From the IMG/VR virus record IMGVR_UViG_3300031784_000007: a stretch of DNA of 64,000 bases; one strand, 5' to 3'. Origin of the DNA: a virus (Duplodnaviria; Heunggongvirae; Uroviricota; Caudoviricetes). Each line of letters begins with the position of its first letter. Position 1 is the stretch's first letter. The translations under genes and the position numbers were made by a program. Positions 14,249-63,727 of the stretch are shown here, piece after piece. The notes beneath the pieces are model-generated. The model saw only the letters and a program-made list of their open reading frames with translations, did no database searches and was not told where the DNA came from.

Positions 14249-14255
14249 CTAAAAG

Positions 14256-14283: not shown

Positions 14284-14319
14284 AGATTTAGGACCCCTCC
14301 TTTCAATTAAATGTTTATC

Positions 14320-29453: not shown

Positions 29454-30485
29454 GTGTTACCTAAATTAAACAAATATCACAATGATGGACTGTTATATAA
29501 ACAGACACATCCTACATTACCGTTAACCATATGGAATTATACACCAGCGGTTCAATACGGTGAAAAGTGGGATGAAGTAACTTTACAGTGCCGTGGTTTA
29601 GTGACTGGTACTGAAGGTAATGTAGTTGCAAGACCATTTAAAAAATTCTTCAACATAGAAGAAAACAAACACACACCTACCCAAGATTTTGAGGTATTTG
29701 ATAAGATGGATGGTTCATTGGGAATCATATTCAAGTACAATGGTGAAATGATATGTGCCACTCGTGGTTCTTTTACCTCAGACCAATCAAAGTGGATGAG
29801 TGAGTTCGCTCAAAAGTACAATTACCAAGACATCATAGTTGAAGGGTTCACTTATTTGTTTGAAATCATCTACCCTGAAAATAGAATAGTTGTTAATTAT
29901 GATGGTCAAGAAAGATTGGTATTGTTAGGTATCATCAATACTGAGACAGGTGAAGAACTTCCACACAATGAGTTGTTTGAAGGGTTTGACGTTGTCAAAA
30001 AATACGATGGAGTTCGGGATTATTCCGAATTAAAGGGTAAAGTTGAGCAAAACTCTGAAGGATTTGTTGTTCGTTTTTCTAACGGAGACCGAATGAAAAT
30101 TAAAGGTGAGGAATATCTACGACTTCATAAGATAATGACAAATGTATCAACCACTGGTGTTTGGGAATTGTTATCTAATGGTGGCGACATCAATGAGTTC
30201 TTAAAGGACGTACCTGATGAATTTTATAAGAAAGTAAAAGATTATGCGGATTTATTGAAGTATGGGTTTTACCGAGTATCTGAAGATTGTGGAAAGGCAC
30301 ACTATTACTTCAGATATGGAAAATATAGTGATAAAGAAATTGAACCAACTAAAAAACAGTTCGCAGAACATGTTATGAATCATGGACATCCACCATACAG
30401 AGCGGTGATGTTCGCCATGTGGGATGGAAAACCTTATGATAAATTGATATGGAACATAATAAAACCAGAATGGAAGAAACTGTAA
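29454..30485 (+). CDS. ATP-dependent RNA ligase, T4 Rnl1-like (nucleotidyltransferase motifs I, IV, V)
   Basis: Motif I FDKMDGSLGII (compare Rnl1 KEDGSL), motif IV EGFVVRF, motif V RMKIKG; 343 aa. Confidence 0.6.
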   Translation: MLPKLNKYHNDGLLYKQTHPTLPLTIWNYTPAVQYGEKWDEVTLQCRGLVTGTEGNVVARPFKKFFNIEENKHTPTQDFEVFDKMDGSLGIIFKYNGEMICATRGSFTSDQSKWMSEFAQKYNYQDIIVEGFTYLFEIIYPENRIVVNYDGQERLVLLGIINTETGEELPHNELFEGFDVVKKYDGVRDYSELKGKVEQNSEGFVVRFSNGDRMKIKGEEYLRLHKIMTNVSTTGVWELLSNGGDINEFLKDVPDEFYKKVKDYADLLKYGFYRVSEDCGKAHYYFRYGKYSDKEIEPTKKQFAEHVMNHGHPPYRAVMFAMWDGKPYDKLIWNIIKPEWKKL

Positions 30486-33245: not shown

Positions 33246-33452
33246 TTGGTTAATATGACAAACGAAGAATGGATTGAGGAATTGTATCACCTATCTCATG
33301 AGATTGGTAAGTACAATGAAATGCATGGTAAAGTAAATGAGTGTAGAAAAAAACACCCTGACTTAAATACTGTTGAATGTGCCGAATTAGCTTATATTGA
33401 ATTAAAACGACAATACGAAGAGGAGATTGAATTAAATGAACAACCTAGATAA
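33246..33452 (+). CDS. small hypothetical protein
   Basis: 68-aa ORF overlapping the thyA start. Confidence 0.35.
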   Translation: MVNMTNEEWIEELYHLSHEIGKYNEMHGKVNECRKKHPDLNTVECAELAYIELKRQYEEEIELNEQPR

Positions 33453-34605
33453 ACAATACCAAGACCTACTCAAATCTATTTTAGATTATGGTGTAGAAAA
33501 GAAAGACCGTACAGGTACAGGAACCAAATCTATTTTTGGTTATACAATCCGTCATAAAATGAGTGATGGGTTTCCATTACTTACAACCAAGAAAATGGCT
33601 TGGAAGACAATGGTGACAGAATTACTATGGTTTTTACGAGGTGATACAAACATCAAATACCTTGTTGATAATGATTGCCATATTTGGGATGGTGATGCGT
33701 TCAAAAACTTTATGACTACAAGTGAAGGTGACCCTGACATGATATGGAACCAAGACCAATTCATTCATCTGATTAAAACTAATGATGAGTTTGCTAAGGA
33801 GTGGGGTGAGTTAGGACCAATCTATGGTAAGCAATGGAGAAGTTGGAGCCGAAATGCAACCCGTGATGAGAAAATAGTTGACCCTGGTGTTTATACAAAA
33901 CAAATAGACCAAATCCAAAACCTAATCAACGACCTTAAAACAAATCCAGACTCAAGACGACTAATGGTTTCAGCTTGGAATGTAGGAGAATTAGACCAAA
34001 TGGTTCTTCCTCCTTGTCATTATGGATTTCAAGTTTATACGAGAGAATTAAGTAAGAGTGAGAGATATGTACATTTAAGAACGGGTAAGTATTCTGGAAA
34101 ATGGGATGGAACTGGTGATGAAATGGAGTATTATAATTCAATAGGTGTTCCTAAACGAGCAATCTCTTTAATGTGGAATCAACGTTCGTGTGACGTTCCA
34201 TTAGGAATTCCAATGAATATAGCATCATATGGACTTCTTTTAATGATGATTGCGGATGAAGTTAATATGATACCTGAAGAACTAATTGGTAATTTAGGAG
34301 ATTGTCACATCTATTTGAACCAAATGGACGGTGTTAAAGAACAAATTGGTAGAGAGTTTAGTTATGAAGAAAGATTAGAGTTGATTAAAGATAATAAAGA
34401 TTTTTTAGTTAAATTATCATCTTATTCATCAAACGAAGATGTTATGAAGTTATGTGATGAATTCTTAGTCCCAAGACGTACAAGAGAACCGTTTGAATTA
34501 CCAACAGTACACGTTAGAGACGGAATCCACTGTTCATCAGTAAATGATGTTATTTTGAAAAATTATCAATCACATTCTAAGATTTATTTTCCACTTTCTA
34601 ATTAA
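33436..34605 (+). CDS. thyA: thymidylate synthase family protein (ThyA; a dUMP hydroxymethylase cannot be excluded), with insertions
   Basis: DRTGTGT, GPIYGKQWR, SAWNVGELDQMVLPPCH (catalytic Cys), RSCDVPLGIPMNIASY (Asn gives dUMP specificity), C-terminus ...KIYFPLSN; 389 aa because of three insertions. Confidence 0.85.
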   Translation: MNNLDKQYQDLLKSILDYGVEKKDRTGTGTKSIFGYTIRHKMSDGFPLLTTKKMAWKTMVTELLWFLRGDTNIKYLVDNDCHIWDGDAFKNFMTTSEGDPDMIWNQDQFIHLIKTNDEFAKEWGELGPIYGKQWRSWSRNATRDEKIVDPGVYTKQIDQIQNLINDLKTNPDSRRLMVSAWNVGELDQMVLPPCHYGFQVYTRELSKSERYVHLRTGKYSGKWDGTGDEMEYYNSIGVPKRAISLMWNQRSCDVPLGIPMNIASYGLLLMMIADEVNMIPEELIGNLGDCHIYLNQMDGVKEQIGREFSYEERLELIKDNKDFLVKLSSYSSNEDVMKLCDEFLVPRRTREPFELPTVHVRDGIHCSSVNDVILKNYQSHSKIYFPLSN

Positions 34606-43776: not shown

Positions 43777-44475
43777 ATGAACAAAAAAGAAATTCTTAAG
43801 GAAGAGTCCAACAAAATGAGAAAATTAATGGGTTTAAAACCTATTAATGAAGATATGTTGGACGATATTATCAATAAAATTAAAGATTCTGAAATTGTTA
43901 AAAAAATTGAAGATTTTTTTGATGGTGATGATGATGAAGATAGTGATGACTCTAAAAATTCCGATGATAAAAGCGTTGGTGATAAAATCAAAGATTTCTT
44001 CAAGTCTGTTGAAAAAGACCCATCAAAAACTGATGATATGATTTCACCTTTATGTGGTACAGAATATGAGTGGGAGGTTACAAGTGAATTTGGTGATAGA
44101 ACAAGAGATGGTAAGAGTGAAAAACATTCAGCAAATGATTTAAAGGCAAAACAAGGTACAACTTTGGTTTCACCATTTAACGGTGAAATTATTGATTCTA
44201 CTGACAACGCTTCTGATTGTGGTGGAATGATTAAGATTAAATTTGATAATGGATATGAGGCAAAGTTTTGTCACTTATCATCAAGAAGTGTTGAAAAAGG
44301 TGAATTTGTATTAAAAGGACAAGAGATTGGAAAATCAGGTGGTGACAAATCTGATTCAGCAAGCAAAAGAGGTAATTCAGAAGACGCTCACTTACACTTT
44401 GAATTGAAAAAAGATGGTTCATTTGTTGACCCATCAAAACATATTAACAAAAACTACTGTACAAAAGCATCATAA
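43777..44475 (+). CDS. M23-family peptidoglycan endopeptidase
   Basis: HSANDL...HLHFELKKDG (HxxxD and HxH motifs). Confidence 0.7.
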   Translation: MNKKEILKEESNKMRKLMGLKPINEDMLDDIINKIKDSEIVKKIEDFFDGDDDEDSDDSKNSDDKSVGDKIKDFFKSVEKDPSKTDDMISPLCGTEYEWEVTSEFGDRTRDGKSEKHSANDLKAKQGTTLVSPFNGEIIDSTDNASDCGGMIKIKFDNGYEAKFCHLSSRSVEKGEFVLKGQEIGKSGGDKSDSASKRGNSEDAHLHFELKKDGSFVDPSKHINKNYCTKAS

Positions 44476-44624: not shown

Positions 44625-44660
44625 TTTGACATTTTAAACAACTTATACTATATATAAAGT

Positions 44661-44990
44661 ATGAAATAGATTACAAACAGACTCTACGTAGTTACAAGAA
44701 AAGATTTGATGCCAGGTGCTCAAATCGCACAATCAGGACATGCAATTGCTCAATATCTGTTGGAGCATCCTGAAAAATCAAAAGAGTGGAACAATAACTA
44801 TCTTATTTGTTTATCCACCGAAAACGAACAATCATTAAACAAAGTATTAGAAAAGTTAGAATCGTTTGGAATTCCTATTTCCACATTCTACGAACCTGAT
44901 TTGAATAATCAGTTAACATCCATTGCGTTTCAACACAATGAAAAAAGTCATGGACATACAAAATCATTACCATTAGCACTTAAACAATAA
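44661..44990 (+). CDS. PTH2-family peptidyl-tRNA hydrolase; reading frame opens ATG-AAA-TAG (amber at codon 3), and the conserved N-terminal strand LYVVTRKDL lies between that TAG and the first downstream ATG (44709)
   Basis: Translation downstream of the TAG: ITNRLYVVTRKDLMPGAQIAQSGHAIAQ...IPISTFYEPDLNNQLTSIAF matches the PTH2 consensus (mvlvvRtDLkmgkGKiaAQcsHA ... DAG-like EPD ... T..a.GP). The ORF track starts it at TTG 44706, which would delete strand 1. Confidence 0.5.
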
Positions 44991-44994
44991 ACTT

Positions 44995-45252
44995 ATGAAA
45001 TAGATAACAGAAAAAAAAGAAGAAATTGTGTTTCATTTTAACAAGAAACACATTCAGAACTCAACAATCCCAATGTGGGTTGTGAAGTGTCGTGGTGATA
45101 CACATTACGTTGACCACGTTGATGTATTACCAGGAATTGGTTTTTCAACAAAAGAAACTCCCGACAATCCCCACACTAAAGGGAGTATAAAATTCAAAGG
45201 ACAATTGTCCATTAGTGAGGAAAACAATAAAATAACAGCAAAAATTTACTAA
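44995..45252 (+). CDS. hypothetical protein whose frame also opens ATG-AAA-TAG
   Basis: ATG 44995, AAA, TAG 45001-45003, then ATA ACA GAA ..., in frame with ORF-track 45028 (GTG). Confidence 0.35.
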
Positions 45253-45253
45253 A

Positions 45254-45595
45254 ATGAAAAACACAAAACACAACCCAACAATGATGATTAAATCGGCTTT
45301 CTCAAATAAAATCCATAAACTTTTAGGTGTATGTACCCATCACAAACCATATTCAAGAGAATACTGGGCATGTCTAAGTGAAAGAAAAAAATTAACTGAT
45401 GAAGATAAAGTTAAACTTTTTGATGAGGTTATGAAGATTTATAAGGAAACCTCAGATGAAATAAAAAACTACCGTAACGACAGAAACCTAAAGAAGTGGG
45501 TTAATAGAAGACGAGAAAACAGAGGGTATGTCCCAAAGAAAAAAACAACCAAAGAAGAATATCTGAATATGGTTGAAAATATGAAAGAAGTTTAA
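45254..45595 (+). CDS. hypothetical basic protein
   Basis: 113-aa ORF. Confidence 0.45.
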   Translation: MKNTKHNPTMMIKSAFSNKIHKLLGVCTHHKPYSREYWACLSERKKLTDEDKVKLFDEVMKIYKETSDEIKNYRNDRNLKKWVNRRRENRGYVPKKKTTKEEYLNMVENMKEV

Positions 45596-45704
45596 TAACT
45601 TTGTATTGTGATTGAAAAGTGACAGTGACGATTAGACCATGTGAGGCACACATAAAACGTATCAGTTGAAAGTTGAGGTGTTAGACCACCATTAATCACA
45701 TATA

Positions 45705-45776
45705 AGGTCGGGTGGCTGAGTACTTAGGTGAGGGTCCGCAAGACCCCTTAGGATAGTGGAAATCTATCTCCGACCT
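45705..45776 (+). pseudogene. tRNA-like element without a canonical anticodon arm or T-loop (perfect 7-bp acceptor aggtcgg/ccgacct; T-like arm gatag-TGGAAAT-ctatc)
   Basis: Manual fold; internal hairpin gggtc-cgcaa-gaccc has a 5-nt loop. Confidence 0.3.
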
Positions 45777-45782
45777 CTAATT

Positions 45783-45855
45783 GGCTCTGTGGTGTAGCGG
45801 TAACATTGCAGTCTCTAAAACTGATAGTCACGGGTTCGAACCCCGTCAGGGCCAC
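45783..45855 (+). tRNA. tRNA with anticodon CTA (amber suppressor, reads UAG), type I
   Basis: Manual cloverleaf: acceptor ggctctg/cagggcc (one GU), D gtgt-agcggta-acat, anticodon stem gcagt/actga with loop cTCTAaa (U33 and A37 present, 34-36 = CTA), variable tagtc, T arm acggg-TTCGAAC-cccgt, discriminator A. Confidence 0.6.
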
Positions 45856-45881
45856 AAAAAATAAAAAAAAAATAAAAAATA

Positions 45882-45912
45882 TTTGACATATCAATAAACT
45901 TTTGTATCTTTG
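45882..45912 (+). promoter_or_regulatory. promoter for the tRNA operon (-33 TTTG at 45882, -7 TAtcTTTG at 45905)
   Basis: Bacteroidetes-type spacing of about 20 nt between the two elements. Confidence 0.5.
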
Positions 45913-45935
45913 TACTATATTTAATAACAAACACA

Positions 45936-46031
45936 ATGAAACTCGTAAATAAACAAATCGTGAAACATGTCATTCAATTCTGTCAGAATTGGTATATTCG
46001 CTTATTTGCAAGTTCGGGTGTTTTAAGTTAA
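45936..46031 (+). CDS. putative 31-aa leader peptide (MKLVNKQIVKHVIQFCQNWYIRLFASSGVLS) overlapping attenuator segment A
   Basis: Not in ORF track; ATG lies 24 nt after the promoter; stop TAA at 46029 lies about 10 nt past segment A. Confidence 0.3.
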   Translation: MKLVNKQIVKHVIQFCQNWYIRLFASSGVLS

Positions 46032-46082
46032 CACGTAGTAGCCTAAAAAGGATACCCGAACTCACAAGGTTCGGGTTTTTTG
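46011..46082 (+). promoter_or_regulatory. attenuator-like element: segment A agttcgggt (46011-46019) can pair with B acccgaact (46054-46062); B alternatively forms terminator cccgaac/gttcggg plus T-run (46055-46082)
   Basis: Mutually exclusive 9-bp and 7-bp helices; a leader ORF ends at A. Confidence 0.4.
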
Positions 46083-46087
46083 TTTTT

Positions 46088-46114
46088 AAGTTCTTTGACA
46101 TGTTGGTAATCAAA
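46088..46114 (+). repeat. 27-nt repeated element aagttctttgacatgttggtaat(c/a)aaaaa (second copy at 50838-50864), each directly before a tRNA
   Basis: Near-identical copies; contains TTGACA, promoter-like. Confidence 0.5.
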
Positions 46115-46117
46115 AAT

Positions 46118-46190
46118 GGGACGGTAGCAAAGATGGTCAATGCACTGGACTGAAAATCCAGCCATGGTGGTTCGAGTCCACCCCGTCCCA
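46118..46190 (+). tRNA. tRNA-Phe (GAA)
   Basis: Acceptor gggacgg/ccgtccc, anticodon stem ctgga/tccag with loop cTGAAaa, T arm gtgg-TTCGAGT-ccac. Confidence 0.8.
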
Positions 46191-46198
46191 CAATACAT

Positions 46199-46272
46199 TG
46201 GTGATTAGCTCAGTTGGTTAGAGCACTACGCTGATACCGTAGGGGTCACAGGTTCAAGTCCTGTATCACCAA
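46199..46272 (+). tRNA. tRNA-Ile (GAT)
   Basis: Acceptor tggtgat/atcacca, D gctc/gagc, anticodon stem ctacg/cgtag with loop cTGATac, T arm acagg-TTCAAGT-cctgt. Confidence 0.8.
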
Positions 46273-46280
46273 CCATAAAT

Positions 46281-46351
46281 TACCCTTTCGTCTAATGGCA
46301 GGACAAGTGGTTTTGGTCCACTGAATGGAGGTTCGAGTCCTTCAGGGGTAA
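46281..46351 (+). tRNA. tRNA-Gln (TTG)
   Basis: Acceptor taccctt/aggggta, anticodon stem agtgg/ccact with loop tTTTGgt, T arm ggagg-TTCGAGT-ccttc. Confidence 0.7.
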
Positions 46352-46357
46352 CAATAT

Positions 46358-46432
46358 GACTTCGTAGCTCAATTGGTTTAGAGCACCTCACTTTTAATGA
46401 GGGGGTTTCGGGTTCGAGTCCCGACGGGGTCA
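46358..46432 (+). tRNA. tRNA-Lys (TTT)
   Basis: Acceptor gacttcg/cggggtc, anticodon stem cctca/tgagg with loop cTTTTaa, T arm tcggg-TTCGAGT-cccga. Confidence 0.8.
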
Positions 46433-46438
46433 CAACAT

Positions 46439-46511
46439 CTTTCCTTAGCTCAGTTGGAAGAGCATCTGCCTTACATGCAGAGGGTCGTTGGTTCAAATCC
46501 AACAGGAAAGA
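46439..46511 (+). tRNA. tRNA-Val (TAC)
   Basis: Acceptor ctttcct/aggaaag, anticodon stem tctgc/gcaga with loop cTTACat, T arm gttgg-TTCAAAT-ccaac. Confidence 0.8.
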
Positions 46512-46517
46512 CAAAAT

Positions 46518-46599
46518 GCCAGTATCGCATAGCGGCAATTGCACTTGACTGTAAATCAAGCCTCATTTGAGTTCGTAGGTTCGAGTCCTACTGCTGGCA
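46518..46599 (+). tRNA. tRNA-Tyr (GTA), type II
   Basis: Acceptor gccagta/tgctggc, anticodon stem cttga/tcaag with loop cTGTAaa, long variable arm cctcatttgagttc, T arm gtagg-TTCGAGT-cctac. Confidence 0.75.
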
Positions 46600-46661
46600 C
46601 AAAACTTATAATCCTCCAAAACTCGCTTTTTTTACTAGTTTTGGAGACTTATAGAATATAA

Positions 46662-46735
46662 GTCCATATGCCTGAATGGTAAAAGGGACAGTCTGCAAAA
46701 CTGTTATTCGTTGGTTCGATTCCAACTATGGACTC
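46662..46735 (+). tRNA. tRNA-Cys (GCA)
   Basis: Acceptor gtccata/tatggac, anticodon stem acagt/actgt with loop cTGCAaa, T arm gttgg-TTCGATT-ccaac. Confidence 0.75.
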
Positions 46736-46737
46736 TG

Positions 46738-46811
46738 TGACTGTAGCTCAGTTGGTTTAGAGCGTTGGTTTGTGGTACCAAAGGTCGTGGGTTCAAGCCC
46801 CATCAGTCACC
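46738..46811 (+). tRNA. tRNA-His (GTG), discriminator C, CCA encoded
   Basis: Acceptor gtgactg/cagtcac, anticodon stem ttggt/accaa with loop tTGTGgt, T arm gtggg-TTCAAGC-cccat; no encoded G-1. Confidence 0.75.
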
Positions 46812-46817
46812 CCAAAT

Positions 46818-46891
46818 GGTTCCTTAGCTCAATGGATTAGAGCGTTTCGCTACGGACGAAAAGGTTGGGGGTTCGAGTCCCTCAGGAATCA
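46818..46891 (+). tRNA. tRNA-Arg (ACG)
   Basis: Acceptor ggttcct/aggaatc, anticodon stem tttcg/cgaaa with loop cTACGga, T arm ggggg-TTCGAGT-ccctc. Confidence 0.8.
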
Positions 46892-46899
46892 CAACACAC

Positions 46900-46970
46900 A
46901 GGTCAGTAGTGAAATGGTATCATGACAGTCTCCAAAACTGTTGTTGGGGGTTCGAATCCCTCCTGGCCTG
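46900..46970 (+). tRNA. tRNA-Trp (CCA)
   Basis: Acceptor aggtcag/ctggcct, anticodon stem acagt/actgt with loop cTCCAaa, T arm ggggg-TTCGAAT-ccctc. Confidence 0.75.
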
Positions 46971-46976
46971 CAAAAT

Positions 46977-47058
46977 ACCAAAGTGGCGTAAAGGTAGCCG
47001 CGTTAGTCTTAGAAACTAATGTCCTCGGGACATGTGGGTTCGATTCCCACCTTTGGTA
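46977..47058 (+). tRNA. tRNA-Leu (TAG), type II
   Basis: Acceptor accaaag/ctttggt, anticodon stem ttagt/actaa with loop cTTAGaa, variable arm tgtcctcgggacatg, T arm gtggg-TTCGATT-cccac. Confidence 0.75.
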
Positions 47059-47063
47059 CATAT

Positions 47064-47135
47064 TCCTCGGTAGCTCAGCGGTAGAGCACTCGGCTGTTAA
47101 CCGAGCGGTCCCTGGTTCGAATCCAGGTCGGGGAG
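47064..47135 (+). tRNA. tRNA-Asn (GTT)
   Basis: Acceptor tcctcgg/tcgggga, anticodon stem ctcgg/ccgag with loop cTGTTaa, T arm cctgg-TTCGAAT-ccagg. Confidence 0.75.
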
Positions 47136-47178
47136 CAACTTTTTTTGGTAAAGTCAAATATCTGTTGTATATTTGTAT

Positions 47179-47656
47179 CATGACAACAGGATATATTTCT
47201 TCAACCGAATTTATCAAAGGTGCTAAAGAATCCGCATTGGCTAAAAGTGAGTCAGGTGATTGTGTTGTAAGAGCAATCGCATCTGCAGCTGAAATGGACT
47301 ATGATTCGGCTCATCAGTTTGTTAAACAAAAATTTAAAAGACAAAATCGTAAAGGAACTTTTGGTTTTGGTGTTACTATGAACCTAATGTCTAAAAATGG
47401 TGAAAAAATTAACGGTAAATCTGTTGAAATTATCTCTGAAGAATATAGTACCATGTTGTACTACGTTGTAGTGAAAGGGGTTAAAACCCTTAGAAGTACT
47501 ACAACGGGTTCTTTTATCAAAAAATATCCAAAAGGTACTTACGTGGTGGTTGTTAGAGGACATGCATTTACCATCAAAGATGGTGTGGTTATTGGTAACA
47601 TTGAAGATGGTAAAAAAATGAAAAAATACATTAATGGTGTTTGGAAAATTGGGTAA
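47179..47656 (+). CDS. hypothetical protein embedded in the tRNA island (possible Cys...His dyad GDCVVRAIA / RGHAFTIKDG)
   Basis: ORF-track 46922-47656 runs through five tRNAs; the real start is ATG 47179, preceded by tatatttgta. Confidence 0.45.
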
Positions 47657-47683
47657 TATGTTTTAACTTTGTATTATAATAAT

Positions 47684-47758
47684 GGTGTAGGTAGCTCAGT
47701 AGGTAGAGCAACGGTTTGAAACCCCGTGTGCCGAGTGGTTCGATTCCCTCTCACACCA
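47684..47758 (+). tRNA. tRNA-like, probable second tRNA-Phe (GAA), with imperfect acceptor and T-stem pairing
   Basis: D arm tagctcagtaggtagagca, anticodon loop tTGAAac, GGTTCGATTCC T-loop; acceptor ggtgtag/tcacacc has an A-C mismatch and the T-stem pairs poorly. Confidence 0.4.
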
Positions 47759-47974
47759 CAAAATAATTAGATGGGCGTAATGAGGGATGGTACCCGAGTC
47801 CCCAAGATTGGCGGTCACCTGTAATTGGTGGTCGTTGCGTCGTAAGGTTGTCTAATCCGTCCTGAACGGTATCCGGTTCGAGACCGGCTCTAATTATGAA
47901 AAACTAACCCAGTTTCACAATGAAGGCTGATACCTTCGGAGTGGGGGTGACGGTCAGGAGAGACTGACAACCAT

Positions 47975-48079
47975 AGTCAGGTGGCGGAATAGTAGACGCA
48001 ACGAAAGTAAAGTAAGATGGCCCAAACCTTTAAGGTGCGAATAAGCTACTTTGTGCAGGTTCAAATCCTGTCCTGACTA
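47975..48079 (+). tRNA. tRNA-like chimera E1: agtcagg acceptor plus Leu-type D arm, a 56-nt non-tRNA core, then acagg-TTCAAAT-cctgt and cctgact acceptor
   Basis: Core contains a 6-bp helix aaagta/tacttt and no 7-nt anticodon loop. Confidence 0.4.
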
Positions 48080-48122
48080 CAGAGAGTTTTATCAACGGTT
48101 CTCACTAAAAAACCAAAGAAAT

Positions 48123-48200
48123 AGTCAGGTGGCGGAATGGTTAGACGCGACCACGTGAGTGGTCAAACCGGTGTTACAGGTTCGAATCCTGTCCTGACTA
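48123..48200 (+). tRNA. tRNA-like chimera E2: same acceptor/T-arm scaffold; the anticodon arm is replaced by a GNRA-capped hairpin gaccac-GTGA-gtggtc
   Basis: 6-bp perfect stem with a 4-nt GTGA loop; no anticodon possible. Confidence 0.45.
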
Positions 48201-48274
48201 CCAAGTAGAGAGAACCGTGAGTTTGCGGATGGAAACAACCATAAAACGAGCATACGTCATACTCTACTTAAAAT

Positions 48275-48366
48275 AGTCAGGTTTGGTACAAGGTCGGTTG
48301 GATTCCGATGGAAGGTTGTGGCAACGGGTAGCTCCCTGTAGAGAGGTTCGATTCCTCTCCTGACTA
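48275..48366 (+). tRNA. tRNA-like chimera E3: same acceptor scaffold; the interior carries the T-arm-like hairpin tcgg-TTGGATT-ccga and other stems
   Basis: agtcagg ... agagg-TTCGATT-cctct cctgact. Confidence 0.4.
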
Positions 48367-48478
48367 CCGAAGATATCTGTCTAAAAGGACAGGGTTAGCA
48401 ATTTGGAAAAGTACGGAGCGGATAATATCCCTTCTGAGCGAAATCCTTAGGTTGTAGAGGCTGTGGAGCGACACCATA

Positions 48479-48486
48479 TATCTTTG
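48479..48486 (+). promoter_or_regulatory. -7 promoter box TAtcTTTG, 8 nt before tRNA E4
   Basis: TAnnTTTG. Confidence 0.4.
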
Positions 48487-48493
48487 CAAATTT

Positions 48494-48566
48494 AGTCAGG
48501 TGGCGCAATGGTGAGCGCAGGATGCTTATATCATCAAGGTTATGGGTTCGAATCCCGTCCTGACTA
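48494..48566 (+). tRNA. tRNA-Ile (TAT) candidate; canonical type I member of the agtcagg family
   Basis: D gcgc-aatggtga-gcgc, anticodon stem ggatg/catca (top pair mismatched) with loop cTTATat, T arm atggg-TTCGAAT-cccgt. Confidence 0.55.
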
Positions 48567-48581
48567 CTAATAACAGGAAAT

Positions 48582-49190
48582 ATGAAATATACACTAAATT
48601 GTTACGGATGGCAAATGGAAGCAATCGGAAAATCATTAACCGATGAGCAAGTTTCAAAAATTAAAGAGTTTATGAGCGAAAATGGGTATGAAAATTTGTG
48701 GGAAGCCCGTTTTGAATTGGACCAACTTTTAGACATTGACATTTGGGATGGTGAACTGTTTCATTTATCAAAAGCGTTTGATAACGGAGGAATGAATTTT
48801 GTTATTGAGGATGAAGAAGGGAAAGAGGTGTTAAAATTTGATATTCAAGATATGTTGGCTTTGGATGAGGTGATTGATGATTATTACACACATAATCGTC
48901 TTGAAGAGTATAACGCATTTCCAAATGAAAATGGTAACAATAACGTTCTGTTGATGGTTGATGAGAATAAAGGTGGGTTGTATTACATGAACTTTGAGTC
49001 AGATGATGTTCCAACAGTAGAAGATTTTACATTTATGACAGGTAGTATTGTAACACCTGAAGGCGATTATGATTATATTGATAAAATTTTCTTTAAAACT
49101 GTTGAGTTAGAAATTGAGGATTATTTGGATAATTCGGGGAAAGCATCAACCGTTGAATTGTTTACATCTGATGGAGGGGTAATAAACTAA
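48582..49190 (+). CDS. hypothetical acidic protein within the tRNA island
   Basis: 202-aa ORF. Confidence 0.5.
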   Translation: MKYTLNCYGWQMEAIGKSLTDEQVSKIKEFMSENGYENLWEARFELDQLLDIDIWDGELFHLSKAFDNGGMNFVIEDEEGKEVLKFDIQDMLALDEVIDDYYTHNRLEEYNAFPNENGNNNVLLMVDENKGGLYYMNFESDDVPTVEDFTFMTGSIVTPEGDYDYIDKIFFKTVELEIEDYLDNSGKASTVELFTSDGGVIN

Positions 49191-49200
49191 TTATAGTTTT

Positions 49201-49274
49201 GGCGAGGTAGCTCAATTGGTTAGAGCGTCTGTTTCATACGCAGAAGGTTAACGGTTCGATTCCGTTCCTCGCTA
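49201..49274 (+). tRNA. tRNA-Met or Ile2 (CAT), elongator type
   Basis: Acceptor ggcgagg/cctcgct, anticodon stem tctgt/gcaga with loop tTCATac, T arm aacgg-TTCGATT-ccgtt. Confidence 0.75.
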
Positions 49275-49315
49275 CAAAGTTGATTATTCAAAACAAGTTA
49301 TTTATATTTTAACAG

Positions 49316-50584
49316 ATGGAAAAATTATCAAGAGTAGGGAACCAAATCGTCGGTTCTGAGATTATCAAAATCTCACAACAAATCAAAGAAATTGCAAAAA
49401 CAAAACCTGTATCAAACTTAACCATTGGTGACTTTAGTTCCAAATTATGGCCAATACCAACAAAATTAAGTGATTACATTCAAGAAGCTTATGAACATGG
49501 TTTAACAAATTATCCAAATTCACAAGGTGAAATTGAGTTAAGGGAATCTGTTTCAAAACATATTAAACATCAATTCAATGTTGATTATTCACCTGAAGAA
49601 ATCTTAATTGGTGGTGGTGTTAGACCTTTGATTTATACAGTTTATAAATCAATGGTAAATCCGGGTGAGGGTGTTATTTATCCAACACCATCTTGGAATA
49701 ACAACCATTATTGTTTTTTACATAACGCTGAAAAACAAGAAATTGAATGTTCACCTGAAAATTCATTTTTTCCAACCGTTGAAGATGTTAAAAATAAATT
49801 GAGGGACAATACATCTTTAATTTGTATTTGTTCACCACAAAATCCAACAGGTCGTGTAATTAATTCAGAAGTTTTGAAAGGTATTTGTCAGGTAATTGTT
49901 GATGAAAACAATATCAGAAAAAATCAAGCATATACAAGACCATTGTATTTGTTCTTTGACCAAATTTATTCTGACATTACCAAAGATGGTTTATTTGTAC
50001 ACCCATTAACACTGTGTCCTGAAATTAAAGATTATTTGATTTGTGCTGACGGTATTTCAAAATCATTAAACGCAACTGGTGTTCGTGTTGGTTGGTTGTT
50101 TGGACCAAAAGATGTGATTGGGAAAATGACTGAGGTCTTGTCTCATATCGGAGCTTGGGCACCAAAACCTGAACAAACAGCATTGGCCAGATACATCAAA
50201 GAAAATCATGATGATTATTTGTCACACATTGATTATGTTACAAAAGAGTATGAATATTTATCAACCCAAATATGTGAAAAGTTTCAAGAGTTGAAGACAA
50301 AGGGTTTAGATGTTGATTATCAAAAACCTGATGGTGGAATTTATATTTCAGTTTATTTGGGTTATGTCCATTCATTTTCATCTACAGAAGAATATATTTC
50401 GTTCTTAATTAATACTTGTGGATTGGGAATTGTTCCTTTTGAATATTTTGGTTCCAAAGAAAATAAAGGATGGTTTAGAATCTCAATTGGTAACATTTCA
50501 TCATTAAATTTGGATTTTATTCTTGATACAATTGAAAAATCCGTATTAAAATCAAATAGTTTTATAAATTCTATGGTATTTTGA
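49316..50584 (+). CDS. PLP-dependent aminotransferase, class I/II fold
   Basis: ICADGISKSLNATGVRVGWLFGP (SxSK...GxRxGW lysine motif); 422 aa. Confidence 0.6.
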   Translation: MEKLSRVGNQIVGSEIIKISQQIKEIAKTKPVSNLTIGDFSSKLWPIPTKLSDYIQEAYEHGLTNYPNSQGEIELRESVSKHIKHQFNVDYSPEEILIGGGVRPLIYTVYKSMVNPGEGVIYPTPSWNNNHYCFLHNAEKQEIECSPENSFFPTVEDVKNKLRDNTSLICICSPQNPTGRVINSEVLKGICQVIVDENNIRKNQAYTRPLYLFFDQIYSDITKDGLFVHPLTLCPEIKDYLICADGISKSLNATGVRVGWLFGPKDVIGKMTEVLSHIGAWAPKPEQTALARYIKENHDDYLSHIDYVTKEYEYLSTQICEKFQELKTKGLDVDYQKPDGGIYISVYLGYVHSFSSTEEYISFLINTCGLGIVPFEYFGSKENKGWFRISIGNISSLNLDFILDTIEKSVLKSNSFINSMVF

Positions 50585-50730
50585 TTGATTTTTTCAAAAT
50601 ATTACTATATTTAATAAGAAATCAAATAATAATACATTCGATGAAAACCATATTCATATTCGGCACACCAGCAACAGAGGGTGATACTTCCAAAGTGGAG
50701 ATGGGATAATATTGTAAAAAATCTTACAAA

Positions 50731-50760
50731 AACCCATCTCAAAAGGATGGGTTTTTTTTT
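50731..50760 (+). terminator. intrinsic terminator (CCCATC / GATGGG plus 9 T residues)
   Basis: Follows the aminotransferase gene. Confidence 0.7.
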
Positions 50761-50791
50761 GGTTATGTTTGTCAATATCAAAAAAATGTAT

Positions 50792-50799
50792 TAACTTTG
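50792..50799 (+). promoter_or_regulatory. -7 promoter box TAacTTTG
   Basis: Precedes the second copy of the 27-nt element and tRNA-Glu. Confidence 0.4.
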
Positions 50800-50837
50800 T
50801 ATTGTTGTTGAAGATGACAACAGAACAAAAAAGTTCT

Positions 50838-50864
50838 TTGACATGTTGGTAATAAAAAAATTGC
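50838..50864 (+). repeat. second copy of the 27-nt element aagttctttgacatgttggtaataaaaaa
   Basis: Matches 46088-46114. Confidence 0.5.
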
Positions 50865-50931
50865 TCGGTTCGTCTATCGGTTAGGACCTCAGGTTTTCAT
50901 CCTGGTAAGAGGGGTTCGACTCCCCTACCGA
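50862..50931 (+). tRNA. tRNA-Glu (TTC)
   Basis: Acceptor gctcggt/accgagt, anticodon stem tcagg/cctgg with loop tTTTCat, T arm agggg-TTCGACT-cccct. Confidence 0.7.
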
Positions 50932-51036
50932 GTACAAAAGTTATATCCTCAGGTACCCGTACAGTGGTGAGTAGGGTTAAATTAGATACAAGTTCTCGGA
51001 ACTGGAAGTAGAATGCCTGTACGATGTAACTTAAAT

Positions 51037-51111
51037 GCCTCCGTAGCTCAGTTGGCCAGAGCTACTGATTTGTAATCAGTGGGTCGGCGGTTCGAATCCG
51101 TCCGGAGGCTC
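51037..51111 (+). tRNA. tRNA-Thr (TGT), CCA encoded
   Basis: Acceptor gcctccg/cggaggc, anticodon stem actga/tcagt with loop tTTGTaa, T arm ggcgg-TTCGAAT-ccgtc. Confidence 0.8.
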
Positions 51112-51120
51112 CAAATAAAT

Positions 51121-51276
51121 AGTCAGGTGGCGAAATGCTTATAAGCAGACATATAGTCCCCTTATAACTTGGAAGACGCTTAGTCCTATGATGGTGTATG
51201 GTTGAAAGAGCTTACCTAGGACGAATGCCGTAACTGCAGTAATCCGGCGCTACAGGTTCGAGCCCTGTCCTGACTA
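51121..51276 (+). tRNA. tRNA-like chimera E5 (156 nt): agtcagg acceptor and acagg-TTCGAGC-cctgt cctgact ends around a structured insert of about 110 nt
   Basis: Insert hairpins include gctta/taagc and gtccta/taggac. Confidence 0.4.
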
Positions 51277-51305
51277 CAAACATTCAAGAGTAATTAACTT
51301 GAATA

Positions 51306-51371
51306 GGCTAATTAGTGGAGTGGTACCACAGAGGTGATTCTCAGACGCAGGTTCGATTCCTGTATTATCCA
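51306..51371 (+). pseudogene. truncated tRNA-like element (acceptor, D and T arms present; only 17 nt between D and T arms)
   Basis: ggctaat ... gtgg-agtggta-ccac ... gcagg-TTCGATT-cctgt attatcc. Confidence 0.3.
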
Positions 51372-51372
51372 C

Positions 51373-51590
51373 AAACCTCAGGATTAATTACCCTGAGACT
51401 GGAAGGTTCGAAACTTCCGATTGGTTATGGTGTATGGGGCACGGCAGAACGTAATTGGGATGCAGGATTAAGGTTCAAATCCTTATTAATCAGCAAATGG
51501 AGGTATGGGGTGAACCCCTGACACAAAGTACAAGTGATGGTACGTACGACCTATAGGTTACCAACCTCTAAACTAATTACAACTTTTTTA
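51373..51590 (+). pseudogene. block of degenerate tRNA-like fragments and small hairpins (T-loop-like GGTTCGAAACTTCC and AAGGTTCAAATCCTT; no complete cloverleaf)
   Basis: Manual inspection only. Confidence 0.25.
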
Positions 51591-51593
51591 AAT

Positions 51594-51665
51594 AGCGGGG
51601 TAGAGCAGAGGTAGCTTGCAAGGCTCATAACCTTGAGGTCACAGGTTCGAATCCTGTCCCCGCTA
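51594..51665 (+). tRNA. tRNA-Met or Ile2 (CAT), A1-U72
   Basis: Acceptor agcgggg/ccccgct, anticodon stem caagg/ccttg with loop cTCATaa, T arm acagg-TTCGAAT-cctgt. Confidence 0.7.
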
Positions 51666-51671
51666 CCAAAT

Positions 51672-51749
51672 TGTGATACAGGTGTAACGTCGGTCTCATG
51701 AACCGAATTGGGTCGCCCCCCGTCAGAGGTTCGAGTCCTCTAATCACAA
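51672..51749 (+). pseudogene. aberrant tRNA-like (CAT anticodon loop cTCATga, no proper D arm, 18-nt variable region)
   Basis: tgtgata ... tcggt-ctcatga-accga ... agagg-TTCGAGT-cctct aatcaca. Confidence 0.3.
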
Positions 51750-51756
51750 CCAAATA

Positions 51757-51840
51757 TATGGCGAGTTGGTGTAATGGTAACATATTGGGCTCATAACCCA
51801 AAGTTCTAGGTTCGAGTCCTAGGTTCGCAACCAAGTACCA
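51757..51840 (+). pseudogene. aberrant tRNA-like with CAT anticodon arm (ttggg-cTCATaa-cccaa) and a tandemly duplicated T-arm segment ctaggttcgagtcctaggttcgcaacc
   Basis: The 3' acceptor strand does not pair with any candidate 5' strand. Confidence 0.25.
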
Positions 51841-52040
51841 CGATGATTACCGTAAGAACATCACAGTGGTAGATAGAGTTAACGTGAATAACCCAAGGCA
51901 TAAGCGTTAACAACCCCCCATAAGAATATTTGGCCAATAGAAACTGTGGGGGTTTTTAAAATCTTGTGTCTTGGTACGCTCTGACGAAAGTTAACGACAA
52001 GGTCTCGGTGGACAGAACTAGTCTGATTCCACCCAAAAAT

Positions 52041-52112
52041 GCGAGTGTCGTATAAAGGCTATTACTCCAGCCTTCCAAGCTGGAGATGGGAGTTCGATTC
52101 TCCCCACTCGCT
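52041..52112 (+). tRNA. tRNA-Gly (TCC)
   Basis: Acceptor gcgagtg/cactcgc, anticodon stem ccagc/gctgg with loop cTTCCaa, T arm gggag-TTCGATT-ctccc. Confidence 0.75.
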
Positions 52113-52321
52113 CAAAAAGAACCTTTCCTTACGGAAGTCCGATTAGCGCGGATGAAAGGAACCTTGACTTTGTGGGAGTAATTACCCAACCGAAGTTTGA
52201 ATGACTCAAGGTACTCTGTAATGGACCCTGCTCTATGGTGCACACATAACAGGTGATGGGGAACAAACCATCGGTAAAATCTAAACCTACGGTGAGCGTA
52301 GAAGGAAAGTTTCTTTTTGTT

Positions 52322-52394
52322 GCGGGAGTAGCTCAGTTGGTAGAGCACAACCTTGCCAAGGTTGGGGTCGCCGGTTCGAATCCGGTCTCCCGCT
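52322..52394 (+). tRNA. tRNA-Gly (GCC)
   Basis: Acceptor gcgggag/ctcccgc, anticodon stem caacc/ggttg with loop tTGCCaa, T arm gccgg-TTCGAAT-ccggt. Confidence 0.8.
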
Positions 52395-52463
52395 CAAATG
52401 TGAATCTTAAAAAGGGCCCTTCCGTGTTTATTACGGCTTGTTGGGCCCGGATTTACTAACTAC

Positions 52464-52535
52464 GGTCCTGTAGTTAATCGGCTATAATATTGCCCTGTCA
52501 CGGCAAAGTGCCGGGTTCGATTCCCGGTGGGACCG
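52464..52535 (+). tRNA. tRNA-Asp (GTC)
   Basis: Acceptor ggtcctg/tgggacc (two GU pairs), anticodon stem ttgcc/ggcaa with loop cTGTCac, T arm ccggg-TTCGATT-cccgg. Confidence 0.7.
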
Positions 52536-52544
52536 CAAAAATAA

Positions 52545-52618
52545 GGGCTGTTAGCTCAGTTGGCTAGAGCACCTGCCTTGCACGCAGGGGGTCGACGGTT
52601 CGAATCCGTCACGGTCCA
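52545..52618 (+). tRNA. tRNA-Ala (TGC) with the G3-U70 identity pair
   Basis: Acceptor gggctgt/acggtcc, anticodon stem cctgc/gcagg with loop cTTGCac, T arm gacgg-TTCGAAT-ccgtc. Confidence 0.8.
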
Positions 52619-52627
52619 CAAAAAAAT

Positions 52628-52703
52628 AGCGTAGTAGAGGAGTCAGGTTTATCTCATCTGCTTTGGGAGCAGAGGCACGCTGGTTCGAATCCAGTCTACG
52701 CTA
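52628..52703 (+). tRNA. tRNA-Pro (TGG)
   Basis: Acceptor agcgtag/ctacgct, anticodon stem tctgc/gcaga with loop tTTGGga, T arm gctgg-TTCGAAT-ccagt; D loop unusually long. Confidence 0.65.
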
Positions 52704-52738
52704 CAATTATTTTTTATTATCAACGTGTATTTATAGTT

Positions 52739-62450: not shown

Positions 62451-62750
62451 ATGAACAAGTCATTTAAAAATACGTATAGATTAGGAATGTTGGTCTTTAT
62501 AATCACAACATTATTTGCCAGCATTATTTTTGGTGCCATGTTTCGTTCTTGTAGTTCTGAACCTGTTGTCAACGTTAACGTAATGGACCGCAAAAATGAA
62601 TCAGTTCACGATACATTCTACATGGATAGAGAAGTCACAAGAGTAATACGTGACACTGTTAGAATACAAATCAAACCTGTGGTAATACCAACCGTAAAAC
62701 CTGTGGTAAAACCAACAGTAATACCAAAGACGGATACTACATCTAAATAA
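62451..62750 (+). CDS. single-TM protein with a C-terminal KPVV repeat
   Basis: 99-aa ORF. Confidence 0.4.
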   Translation: MNKSFKNTYRLGMLVFIITTLFASIIFGAMFRSCSSEPVVNVNVMDRKNESVHDTFYMDREVTRVIRDTVRIQIKPVVIPTVKPVVKPTVIPKTDTTSK

Positions 62751-62755
62751 TTTTT

Positions 62756-62829
62756 GGACCCTTAGCTCAGTTGGTTAGAGCGGCTGACTCATAATCAGTA
62801 GGTCACAGGTTCAAGCCCTGTAGGGTCCA
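62756..62829 (+). tRNA. tRNA-Met or Ile2 (CAT), CCA encoded
   Basis: Acceptor ggaccct/agggtcc, anticodon stem gctga/tcagt with loop cTCATaa, T arm acagg-TTCAAGC-cctgt. Confidence 0.75.
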
Positions 62830-62831
62830 CC

Positions 62832-63185
62832 ATGAATATAAATTTAAAAAACTTTTTGTTTTGTTTTGGAATATTTGCGTTAAGCCAAGTTTTGGTTTGG
62901 TTTCAACTGAATGGACAATTCTTTAATGAGTGGTTCAAAAAGAATACCTTTTTATTATCCCTTGTTGGTATTCCAATTAGTTATCTTTATATCTATGGTA
63001 CAAATTATGGTGTAAAAGCATTTGATGGATTGCTGTGGCCACAAAGATTTTTAGGGTTTTCTATTGGTATAATTATATTTGCAATTTTAAGTCATAGTAT
63101 TATGGATGAGACAATTAATTTCAAAACAATGCTGTCTTTATTCCTTTCTTTTCTTATAATATTAGTACAATTATTTATTAAATAA
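62832..63185 (+). CDS. membrane protein (three to four TM segments)
   Basis: 117-aa ORF starting 3 nt after the tRNA. Confidence 0.45.
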   Translation: MNINLKNFLFCFGIFALSQVLVWFQLNGQFFNEWFKKNTFLLSLVGIPISYLYIYGTNYGVKAFDGLLWPQRFLGFSIGIIIFAILSHSIMDETINFKTMLSLFLSFLIILVQLFIK

Positions 63186-63190
63186 GACTA

Positions 63191-63369
63191 TGGCATATTG
63201 TATTGTAAAATTGATGAAAAATACTAATGGTATTGAATTACCAGTTATCTTATTAGACAACAATGATGAGGTTTGGGAGTTTGAAAATAGTGATGTTGCT
63301 ATTAAAATGGCGGAAATTTTAACAAAAAATTCTGATTCAGGTTATAGATATTACGTAAAAAAGGTTTAG
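63191..63369 (+). CDS. small hypothetical protein (59 aa, not in ORF track)
   Basis: MAYCIVKLMKNTNGIELPVILLDNND.... Confidence 0.3.
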
Positions 63370-63387
63370 TTTTGTAATTATAAACAT

Positions 63388-63461
63388 GTCTTCGTAGCTC
63401 AGCTGGATAGAGCAACTGCCTTCTAAGCAGTAGGTCACAGGTTCGAATCCTGTCGGAGACA
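63388..63461 (+). tRNA. tRNA-Arg (TCT)
   Basis: Acceptor gtcttcg/cggagac, anticodon stem actgc/gcagt with loop cTTCTaa, T arm acagg-TTCGAAT-cctgt. Confidence 0.8.
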
Positions 63462-63472
63462 CAAAAAAATAC

Positions 63473-63559
63473 GGAGGTTTGGCAGAGCGGTCGATTGCGT
63501 CAGTCTTGAAAACTGAAGATGTTGAAAGGCATCCTGGGGTTCGAATCCCTAAGCCTCCG
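63473..63559 (+). tRNA. tRNA-Ser (TGA), type II, discriminator G
   Basis: Acceptor ggaggtt/agcctcc, 3-bp D-stem gca/tgc, anticodon stem tcagt/actga with loop cTTGAaa, long variable arm, T arm tgggg-TTCGAAT-cccta. Confidence 0.7.
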
Positions 63560-63563
63560 CAAA

Positions 63564-63598
63564 ATCTTGGGACACCAACCCAAGATTTTTTTTTTTGG
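63564..63598 (+). terminator. intrinsic terminator (ATCTTGGG / CCCAAGAT plus 12 T residues)
   Basis: 8-bp stem. Confidence 0.7.
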
Positions 63599-63684
63599 AA
63601 GATTACCCAAGTCGGTGAAGGGGGCAGTTTGCTAAACTGTTAGGCTGAGAAATTGGCGCGGGGGTTCGAGTCCCTCATCTTCCG
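63599..63684 (+). tRNA. tRNA-Ser (GCT), type II, discriminator G
   Basis: Acceptor ggaagat/atcttcc, D ccc/ggg, anticodon stem gcagt/actgt with loop tTGCTaa, long variable arm, T arm ggggg-TTCGAGT-ccctc. Confidence 0.7.
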
Positions 63685-63727
63685 CAGAAAAAGAACCAAG
63701 TTATTTGACTCGGTTTTTTTTATTTAC

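Follow-up and report, generated by a model that had tools for sequence, protein, structure and literature searches.

The window considered here, a 64,000-nucleotide stretch of the viral record IMGVR_UViG_3300031784_000007 (Caudoviricetes), harbors two adjacent small genes that both open with ATG-AAA-TAG, an in-frame amber codon thus occupying the third position of each (Table 1). Gene 1 encodes a protein with the fold of the PTH2-type peptidyl-tRNA hydrolases, and gene 2 an 85-residue partner that is predicted to be all-beta. Together with a small open reading frame (ORF), a tRNA-like element and a tRNA with the anticodon CUA, here called tRNA(CUA), they make up a compact cassette at 44626-45855, which is probably a single transcription unit. 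Comparison of this conserved cassette with its relatives makes it likely that both genes are gated by suppressor-tRNA read-through of their N-terminal amber codon. The fixed position of the TAG near the N-terminus sets this gate apart from ordinary recoding. The window itself is AT-rich (33% GC) and phage-like, and covers 64 kb of the source genome.

The sequence that carries the two openings, TATGAAATAGATNACA, is found exactly twice in the window, on the plus strand at 44660-44675 and 44994-45009. Both copies are in frame with the ORF that follows, as a first-pass annotation of this DNA had already reported for a repeated 14-mer. Chance is expected to provide a mean of 0.01 matches, and none of 100 dinucleotide-preserving shuffles contained two or more. 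The second opening starts only 4 nucleotides (nt) downstream of the gene 1 stop codon. The canonical starts first met on the 3' side of the TAG are TTG 44706 and ATG 44709 in gene 1 and GTG 45028 in gene 2.

The first-pass annotation had proposed that a PTH2-type protein needs the stretch that precedes the first canonical start, and several lines of evidence bear this out for gene 1. The first beta-strand, beta1 (RLYVVTR), and the family-invariant residues Arg10 and Asp12 all sit between the TAG and the TTG/ATG at 44706/44709. With the upstream stretch included, the Pfam PTH2 profile (PF01981, curated cut-off 23) is matched over positions 3-81 and gives 28.5 bits; for a protein begun at TTG 44706 the match covers positions 13-81 and gives 25.0 bits. 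When a profile is built from 27 relatives, its match to the solved M. jannaschii Pth2 (2zv3) has E = 4e-9 and begins at beta1 (KLYVVTRKDL against KMVVVIRNDL). In the AlphaFold2 model of gene 1, which has a mean predicted local distance difference test (pLDDT) score of 91.7, beta1, a core strand of the alpha/beta Pth2 fold, is formed by residues 4-10 after the TAG. Foldseek aligns this model over its full length with MJ0051, PH1539, AF2095, S. solfataricus Pth2 and human Bit1 at template modeling (TM) scores of 0.72-0.80 and E values down to 1e-7, with scores of 0.78-0.80 on archaeal Pth2 and human Bit1. Among close relatives, codons 4-15 of gene 1 differ by 12 synonymous changes and 1 non-synonymous change. 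Judged by these codon differences, selection at the protein level acts on the segment that separates the TAG from the first canonical start. Since residues that the protein needs are encoded there, the codon-3 amber has to be read.

By its sequence profile and its predicted fold, the gene 1 product is a divergent member of the PTH2 family. The catalytic residues of Pth2, reportedly established with the S. solfataricus enzyme, are the lysine of a GK motif and the aspartate of a DxG motif. The first-pass annotation had recognized the canonical GK block in gene 1, and in this it was mistaken, as the sequence reads PGAQIAQSGHA and the lysine is absent; the equivalent position is Ala, Tyr or Ser across the subfamily. 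The AQxxHA motif keeps its glutamine and histidine without exception. Where the DxG aspartate would be expected, the subfamily has the motif FxEPDLNNxLT(S/A)IA, in which the invariant Glu75 aligns with the acidic catalytic position and the invariant Asp77 lies two residues further on. With no GK lysine and with Glu75/Asp77 at the site of the catalytic aspartate, hydrolase activity of the gene 1 product is plausible but unproven.

Gene 2 has 786 homologous proteins, and 31 positions are invariant among 23 relatives. It belongs to no Pfam or PHROG family, and its model (AlphaFold2, pLDDT 87) has no significant fold match. In this model, strand beta1 (residues 6-13 after the TAG) straddles GTG 45028. 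Codon differences between the TAG and this first canonical start are 4:1 in favor of synonymous change, and by this measure the stretch is, as in gene 1, under protein-level selection.

The early TAG is a conserved feature of both families. A profile scan of IMG/VR returned 483 PTH2-like relatives, and 71 distinct loci from the scan and from earlier look-ups were analyzed. In 59 of these the gene begins with Met, 1-8 codons, a TAG, a further 2-10 codons and then beta1; TAGs at other positions in the 71 genes number 3. The early TAG occupies the third codon in 35 of 61 distinct contexts. In both close and distant relatives the TAG is constant while the codons around it vary, such that one gene opens with ATG AGA TAG (L033), another with ATG AAA AAG TAG (L037) and a third with ATG AAG AAC AAT TAG ACA (L039). 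On one contig (L040) the PTH2-like gene begins ATG AAG TAG ATA and gene 2 begins ATG TTG TAG ACA. In IMG/VR relatives of as little as about 37% protein identity the early TAG is still there, and among loci from metagenome-assembled genomes (MAGs) it persists at 28-31%. As one base change would suffice to make a sense codon of it, the fact that it is kept suggests that the TAG itself is under selection.

Loci found by way of gene 2 provide another 24 PTH2-like genes with an early TAG, and the arrangement recurs in well over a hundred contigs. Among distinct gene 2 relatives, 42 of 63 carry an early TAG of their own. Of the gene 2 relatives that lack the TAG, 25 were examined, and 24 of them have a neighboring PTH2-like gene that carries one; for the remaining relative (L152) the N-terminus of that neighbor is out of view. 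The genomes of GTDB, which form a separate collection, contributed 10 loci, all on MAG contigs, and 7 of the 10 have the early TAG, at GC contents of 31-64%. The PTH2-like relatives without the TAG are mostly of high GC content and have the N-terminus MATIKMGDKLYLV...

The early TAG is also closely associated with a suppressor tRNA. A tRNA(CUA) lies on the same strand, 10-3200 nt from the PTH2-like gene, in 51 of the 59 early-TAG loci. When only loci flanked by 3 kb or more on each side are counted, tRNA(CUA) is present in 36 and absent from 1 with the early TAG, and present in 2 and absent from 7 without it (Fisher p = 5e-6; the loci are related, so that this association is not one of independent events). 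In many loci tRNA(CUA) is the sole tRNA. This is true of 8 of the 10 GTDB loci, 7 of these 8 carrying the early TAG. Of the 42 early-TAG gene 2 relatives, 28 are in loci that have no PTH2-like gene and sit beside a tRNA(CUA), which is often the sole tRNA and 6-110 nt distant. The first-pass annotation had offered decoding of the codon-3 amber by the CUA tRNA as one of two explanations, and it is this one that gains support, from the conservation of the TAG to 28-40% identity and from the linked tRNA(CUA).

In the window, tRNA(CUA) lies around 0.8 kb downstream of the two genes and on the same strand. It has a G1-C72 pair, discriminator A and no encoded CCA, and is of the elongator type; it is presumed to decode both TAGs. 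An initiator-type tRNA(CUA) that would start translation at UAG was considered and rejected, as the three G-C pairs in the anticodon stem are missing and position 1-72 is paired. The anticodon arm is near-identical to that of the phage tRNA-Trp(CCA), save for the change of CCA to CUA. Across 71 distinct suppressor tRNAs there is no consistent nearest isoacceptor class, and in TAG-free homologues the residues found near the amber position are Q, T, A or others. Database proteins beginning MKQITNRLYVV were discarded as evidence for glutamine, the underlying DNA being TAG and the Q having been written by gene callers. Pyrrolysine was likewise set aside, since the ARAGORN label tRNA-Pyl reflects the anticodon only and nothing else suggests this amino acid, the machinery for which was not searched for.

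The relatives also indicate where translation begins. Those with a Shine-Dalgarno (SD) sequence (L070, L120, L116 and L072) have GGAGG 6-8 nt upstream of the ATG that precedes the TAG, and on this spacing the upstream ATG is a real start. In the window, a promoter-like element of sigma-70 type stops 6 nt before ATG 44661, which suggests a leaderless or near-leaderless mRNA, and the first nucleotide of the gene 1 transcript may be the A of the ATG or its neighbor. The element was not listed by a consensus scanner because its second hexamer ends in A. Relatives L029-L033 and L039 share the layout of a -35 hexamer, 16-17 nt, TATATT or TATAAT, 6 nt and ATG. Leaderless mRNA does not hold as a general rule, other relatives having leaders of 15-30 nt and other promoter motifs; it holds in the closest clade and in the mycobacteriophages described below.

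Cultured phages provide further members of both families. When the region was compared by megablast with 50,697 phage records, only tRNAs matched, which means that there is no close cultured relative. Rhizobium phage RHph_I1_18 (MN988519.1), annotated with the standard code, contains an unannotated homologue of gene 2 at around 10,990-11,250 on the minus strand (L123 2480-2728). It reads MSEFM-amber-NESCREVIFHFNKAH, with the TAG at codon 6, and ends 12 nt before an annotated tRNA-Pyl(cta); the gap in the annotation is caused by the amber codon. Two mycobacteriophage proteins annotated as peptidyl tRNA hydrolase, Bxz1 gp154 (L121) and Myrna gp84 (L122), belong to the gene 1 subfamily, and in both phages a tRNA(CUA) is located 130-300 nt downstream of the gene, the Bxz1 copy being annotated as tRNA-OTHER. 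The Bxz1 gene opens with ATG TAG GTG and that of Myrna with GTG TAG GTG. A promoter-like TTGACA-N18-TACTGT element ends 6 nt upstream of the ATG in Bxz1, and a similar TTGACA...TACAGT element lies 7 nt upstream of the GTG in Myrna.

A number of points weigh against read-through by the suppressor tRNA. All of the support is computational, read-through by tRNA(CUA) being deduced from sequence comparison, and the loci are phylogenetically related, so that the counts given above overstate the number of independent events. The G1-C72/A73 features of tRNA(CUA) are unlike those of the phage tRNA-Gln (U1-A72), and its acceptor stem differs from that of the phage tRNA-Trp. At least one gene of the window (14320-14958, minus strand) and many in related loci seem to terminate with TAG, so that strong suppression would lengthen their products. 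The counts of TAG usage cover 64 kb of the genome, and heavy TAG recoding could occur elsewhere in it. Should the tRNA and the gated genes share one transcript, the gate could not be a simple transcriptional timer. Finally, in 36 of the 61 distinct contexts the TAG is followed by ATT or ATA, both of them weak near-cognate starts, and Bxz1 and Myrna have an SD-like GAAGG or GGAGG 7 nt upstream of the GTG that follows the TAG.

These last two points speak for the second explanation in the first-pass annotation, in which AUG-AAA-UAG is a complete two-codon ORF, ribosomes restart at the adjacent AUU or AUA, and tRNA(CUA) is not involved. In Bxz1 and Myrna, where GenBank places the start at the post-TAG GTG, initiation after the TAG is the simpler reading on account of the good SD spacing. 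In the other 25 of the 61 contexts, however, the codon after the TAG is GTA, GTT, ACA, ACT, AAC, AGC, GGC, CTT, CTG, AAA or AAT, and it is ATG in none; several genes have no start-like codon of any kind before beta1 (e.g. L039). Immediate re-initiation is thus not a general mechanism. The distance from ATG to TAG varies between 1 and 8 codons, and in the SD-type relatives it is the upstream ATG that the SD serves. Re-initiation also leaves unexplained the linkage to tRNA(CUA), found in 36 of 37 well-flanked early-TAG loci and lacking in 7 of 9 TAG-less ones. Taken as the mechanism of the cassette, re-initiation is disfavored and we regard it as improbable.

The context of the TAG fits suppression. 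A 3' purine classically favors the suppression of amber codons. Of the 61 contexts, 46 have an A directly after the TAG, 13 a G, 2 a C and none a T, and the purine in 59 of these agrees with the rule, although the count is confounded by the conserved Ile/Val at this position.

A further possibility is that the phage uses genetic code 15 throughout its genome, such that TAG is a normal sense codon for Gln and its place at codon 3 is a coincidence. In favor of this, the phage has a tRNA with the anticodon CUA and TAG is depleted as a terminator: in a greedy set of 86 ORFs from the window the stop is TAA in 62, TGA in 18 and TAG in at most 6, several of the TAG cases being spurious or inside tRNA genes. 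Databases already hold relatives translated as MKQ... by callers that take TAG as Q. The distant relatives from huge phages (L006 and L007), and Lak phages generally, have internal TAGs and are known recoded lineages, and the window is only a part of its genome. On the other hand, a recoded genome is expected to have many genes with an in-frame TAG. Among the approximately 80 genes of the 64-kb window, an in-frame TAG interrupts otherwise intact genes at 44667 and 45001 only, both at codon 3. The screen behind this count, for an ATG followed by a TAG and a long ORF, set aside antisense artefacts and cases with a normal ATG right after the TAG. When TAG is read as sense, the long genes prove to be free of it, including ORFs of 1511, 716, 694 and 645 amino acids. 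Within the PTH2-like family the TAG falls into the first 2-10 codons in 59 genes and elsewhere in 3, and it is kept, and not exchanged for CAA or CAG, down to the lowest identities given above, where synonymous sites are saturated. In many loci, moreover, the neighboring genes appear to end at TAG. Ordinary code 15 is therefore very improbable as an account of the two genes. One of the few genes of the window that tRNA(CUA) would lengthen is an ORF of 212 amino acids (14242-14958 when extended, minus strand). Its TAG is at 14322-14320, and 26 codons pass before another in-frame stop, overlapping a tRNA-Leu on the opposite strand.

Lastly, the notion that the upstream stretches are untranslated, with ATG-AAA-TAG as non-coding sequence and with starts at TTG 44706 or ATG 44709 and at GTG 45028, or with both genes as decaying pseudogenes, yields the truncated products that code-11 callers produce (93-94 and 74 amino acids), but is contradicted by the loss of beta1 and of the invariant Arg and Asp, the 12:1 synonymous excess in the supposedly non-coding part, the same N-terminal extension in TAG-free homologues (P0145, L002-L004 and high-GC relatives) and the retention of the arrangement in well over a hundred contigs, and is hardly credible.

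Under suppressor-tRNA read-through, ribosomes would start at ATG 44661 and ATG 44995 and reach UAG two codons on, or 1-8 codons on in the relatives. Were release factor 1 (RF1) to win at this point, only a dipeptide would be made. Were tRNA(CUA) to decode the UAG, the ribosome would enter the conserved first beta-strand and the full protein would be produced. The N-terminal amber would in this way act as a translational gate, and both proteins would depend on the presence and activity of the suppressor tRNA. As the gate is placed in a disordered N-terminal tail, a failed attempt would be nearly free and the identity of the inserted residue of no consequence.

The constant company of tRNA(CUA) suggests that both proteins serve suppression, and the purpose we prefer is of this kind, for example the recycling of peptidyl-tRNA dropped at slowly decoded UAGs. 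Proteins that serve suppression would then be made only while suppression runs. The tight linkage of gene and tRNA is compatible with the clearing of suppression-derived peptidyl-tRNA, a possible function that the first-pass annotation had put forward. A more far-reaching and rather doubtful idea is that of a portable, self-sensing module for amber suppression, in which both proteins act on the suppression machinery and their own ambers close a feedback loop. The proteins would either recycle tRNA(CUA) and other tRNAs trapped as short peptidyl-tRNAs at UAGs or antagonize RF1, and the feedback would set or sharpen the level of UAG read-through in an infection that otherwise uses the standard code. 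If true, such a module would explain the suppressor tRNAs without known target in many standard-code phages.

The features of the cassette and others named in the window are collected in Table 1. Gene 3 lies between the two gated genes and the tRNA; its synteny is kept in close relatives, and it was assigned to no family. The element at 45706-45777, although called as a tRNA by ARAGORN, matches no Rfam family, tRNA included, at E <= 1. It contains a 5-base-pair stem capped by a CGCAA loop, is kept in L001, L029 and L040, and in a consensus fold of four relatives shows 7 compensatory pairs. The element could represent either a degenerate tRNA or a signal for processing. The window has a very large set of 32 tRNA genes including tRNA(CUA). 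The further 31 calls, at 45700-52710 and 62750-63690, include duplicates for Met (4), Phe (2), Gly (2) and Cys (2), with small ORFs interspersed.

Table 1. Coordinates of the cassette and of other features in the window
Feature	Position	Strand	Remarks
Clp-type ATPase	7092-9176		
RNA ligase	29454-30485		
Thymidylate synthase	33436-34605		
Promoter-like element	TTGACA 44626-44631, 17-nt spacer, TATATA 44649-44654	+	Read from sequence; putative function
Gene 1 opening	ATG 44661-44663, AAA, TAG 44667-44669	+	In frame with ORF ending TAA 44988-44990
Gene 1, PTH2-fold, 109 codons	44661..44990	+	MK-amber-ITNRLYVVTRKDL..., TAG at codon 3
Gene 2 opening	ATG 44995-44997, AAA, TAG 45001-45003	+	In frame with ORF ending 45252
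Gene 2, 85 codons, all-beta (predicted)	44995..45252	+	MK-amber-ITEKKEEIVFHFNKKH..., TAG at codon 3
Gene 3, 113-amino-acid ORF	45254..45595	+	Normal ATG, no TAG; between gated genes and tRNA
tRNA-like cloverleaf	45706-45777	+	ARAGORN tRNA-Cys(gca), 5 nt upstream of tRNA(CUA)
tRNA, anticodon CUA	45783-45855	+	ARAGORN; Rfam RF00005, 60.9 bits
ARAGORN call, anticodon undetermined	48123-48203		

Other genes accompany the PTH2-like gene in some relatives. Homing-endonuclease-like ORFs lie directly upstream of it in four loci (L060 1930-2691, L063 1709-2452, L062 3204-3986 and L074 496-1488) and open with a second copy of the PTH2-like N-terminus, early TAG included (MT-amber-INHKLIIITRRDLHPGYQAVQ...), the inserted element having thus copied the gated start of its target gene. 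In two others the upstream ORF encodes an HD domain and has an early TAG of its own (MSYL-amber-... and MST-amber-...; L072 3397-3993 and L116 3366-3980). In L073 (3557-4912) the PTH2-like domain is continued at its C-terminus by the same HD domain, a fusion that hints at a shared function of the two domains, perhaps in tRNA-end metabolism.

Suppressor tRNAs are common in large standard-code phages and their targets have been unclear; the adjacent amber-gated genes would provide concrete and conserved targets. The cassette would represent a minimal and tractable case of code switching, with one tRNA and one or two gated genes, and it identifies two protein families, one of them of unknown fold class, as likely partners of the suppressor. 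There is also an effect on annotation, in that code-11 callers truncate or miss the gated genes, as with the unannotated ORF of RHph_I1_18, and code-15 callers silently insert Q at the TAG.

In some respects the gate resembles known cases of conditional decoding. The prfB gene of E. coli, which encodes release factor 2 (RF2), has an early in-frame UGA at codon 26 that is passed by +1 frameshifting, an autoregulation that senses RF2. In both systems an in-frame stop early in the gene of a translation factor would make synthesis hinge on whether termination or an alternative decoding event wins. In the cassette, however, it is a suppressor tRNA that would decode the stop, which lies within codons 2-10, no release factor is encoded, and any feedback is hypothetical. 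The bar minigenes of phage lambda are two-codon ORFs, AUG AUA UGA among them, whose toxicity in Pth-deficient cells comes from peptidyl-tRNA drop-off, to which very short peptidyl-tRNAs that wait at a stop codon are the most prone. Read literally, AUG-NNN-stop is likewise a two-codon minigene, and the link to Pth is suggestive. Unlike the stand-alone lambda bar minigenes, the openings described here are always in frame with and abut a conserved ORF, contain 1-8 sense codons and co-occur with a suppressor tRNA.

Genes for PTH2, the archaeo-eukaryotic peptidyl-tRNA hydrolase (PF01981), are known in jumbo phages (Iyer et al. 2021, PMC7824862). Gene 1 shares the fold and family of these proteins and, like them, is found amid the tRNA and RNA-repair genes of large phages. 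It differs in belonging to a divergent subfamily, and neither an amber gate nor linkage to tRNA(CUA) is mentioned in that paper. The XacN1 genome paper sought read-through at gene ends and found no target for suppressor tRNAs (PMC5852040). This phage was itself considered as an example of the arrangement and rejected, its ORF295 being a canonical PTH2 with a normal ATG that is not beside the suppressor tRNAs. Literature on PTH2 or peptidyl-tRNA hydrolase in connection with suppressor tRNAs or an amber gate yielded no account of the arrangement, and no N-terminal amber gate or tRNA(CUA) linkage was found there for PTH2-like genes or for the 85-residue family. The words hydrolase and N-terminal are absent from the preprint of Borges et al. 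(10.1101/2021.08.26.457843).

The closest parallel is provided by the phages that use code 15, in which TAG is read as sense with the help of phage suppressor tRNAs, and for which a delay of late and lysis genes has been proposed (Borges et al., bioRxiv 10.1101/2021.08.26.457843; Peters et al., PMC9523058). Both there and in the cassette a phage tRNA(CUA) would be needed for genes with an in-frame TAG, and the idea of post-transcriptional control is shared. As in the code change module of the Jade phages, the cassette adjoins a lysin-type gene, which is an M23 peptidase at 43777-44475 in the window and a lysozyme in L034. The code-15 phages, however, have many TAGs scattered through structural and lysis genes, whereas here there is a single, fixed N-terminal TAG. 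Here, two small genes are linked to the tRNA in a region that otherwise uses the standard code; the code-change genes of the Jade phages are themselves in the standard code. Phage recoding by way of suppressor tRNAs, its proposed regulatory role and the PTH2 of jumbo phages were thus already known, and it is the proposed N-terminal gate for which no earlier description was found.

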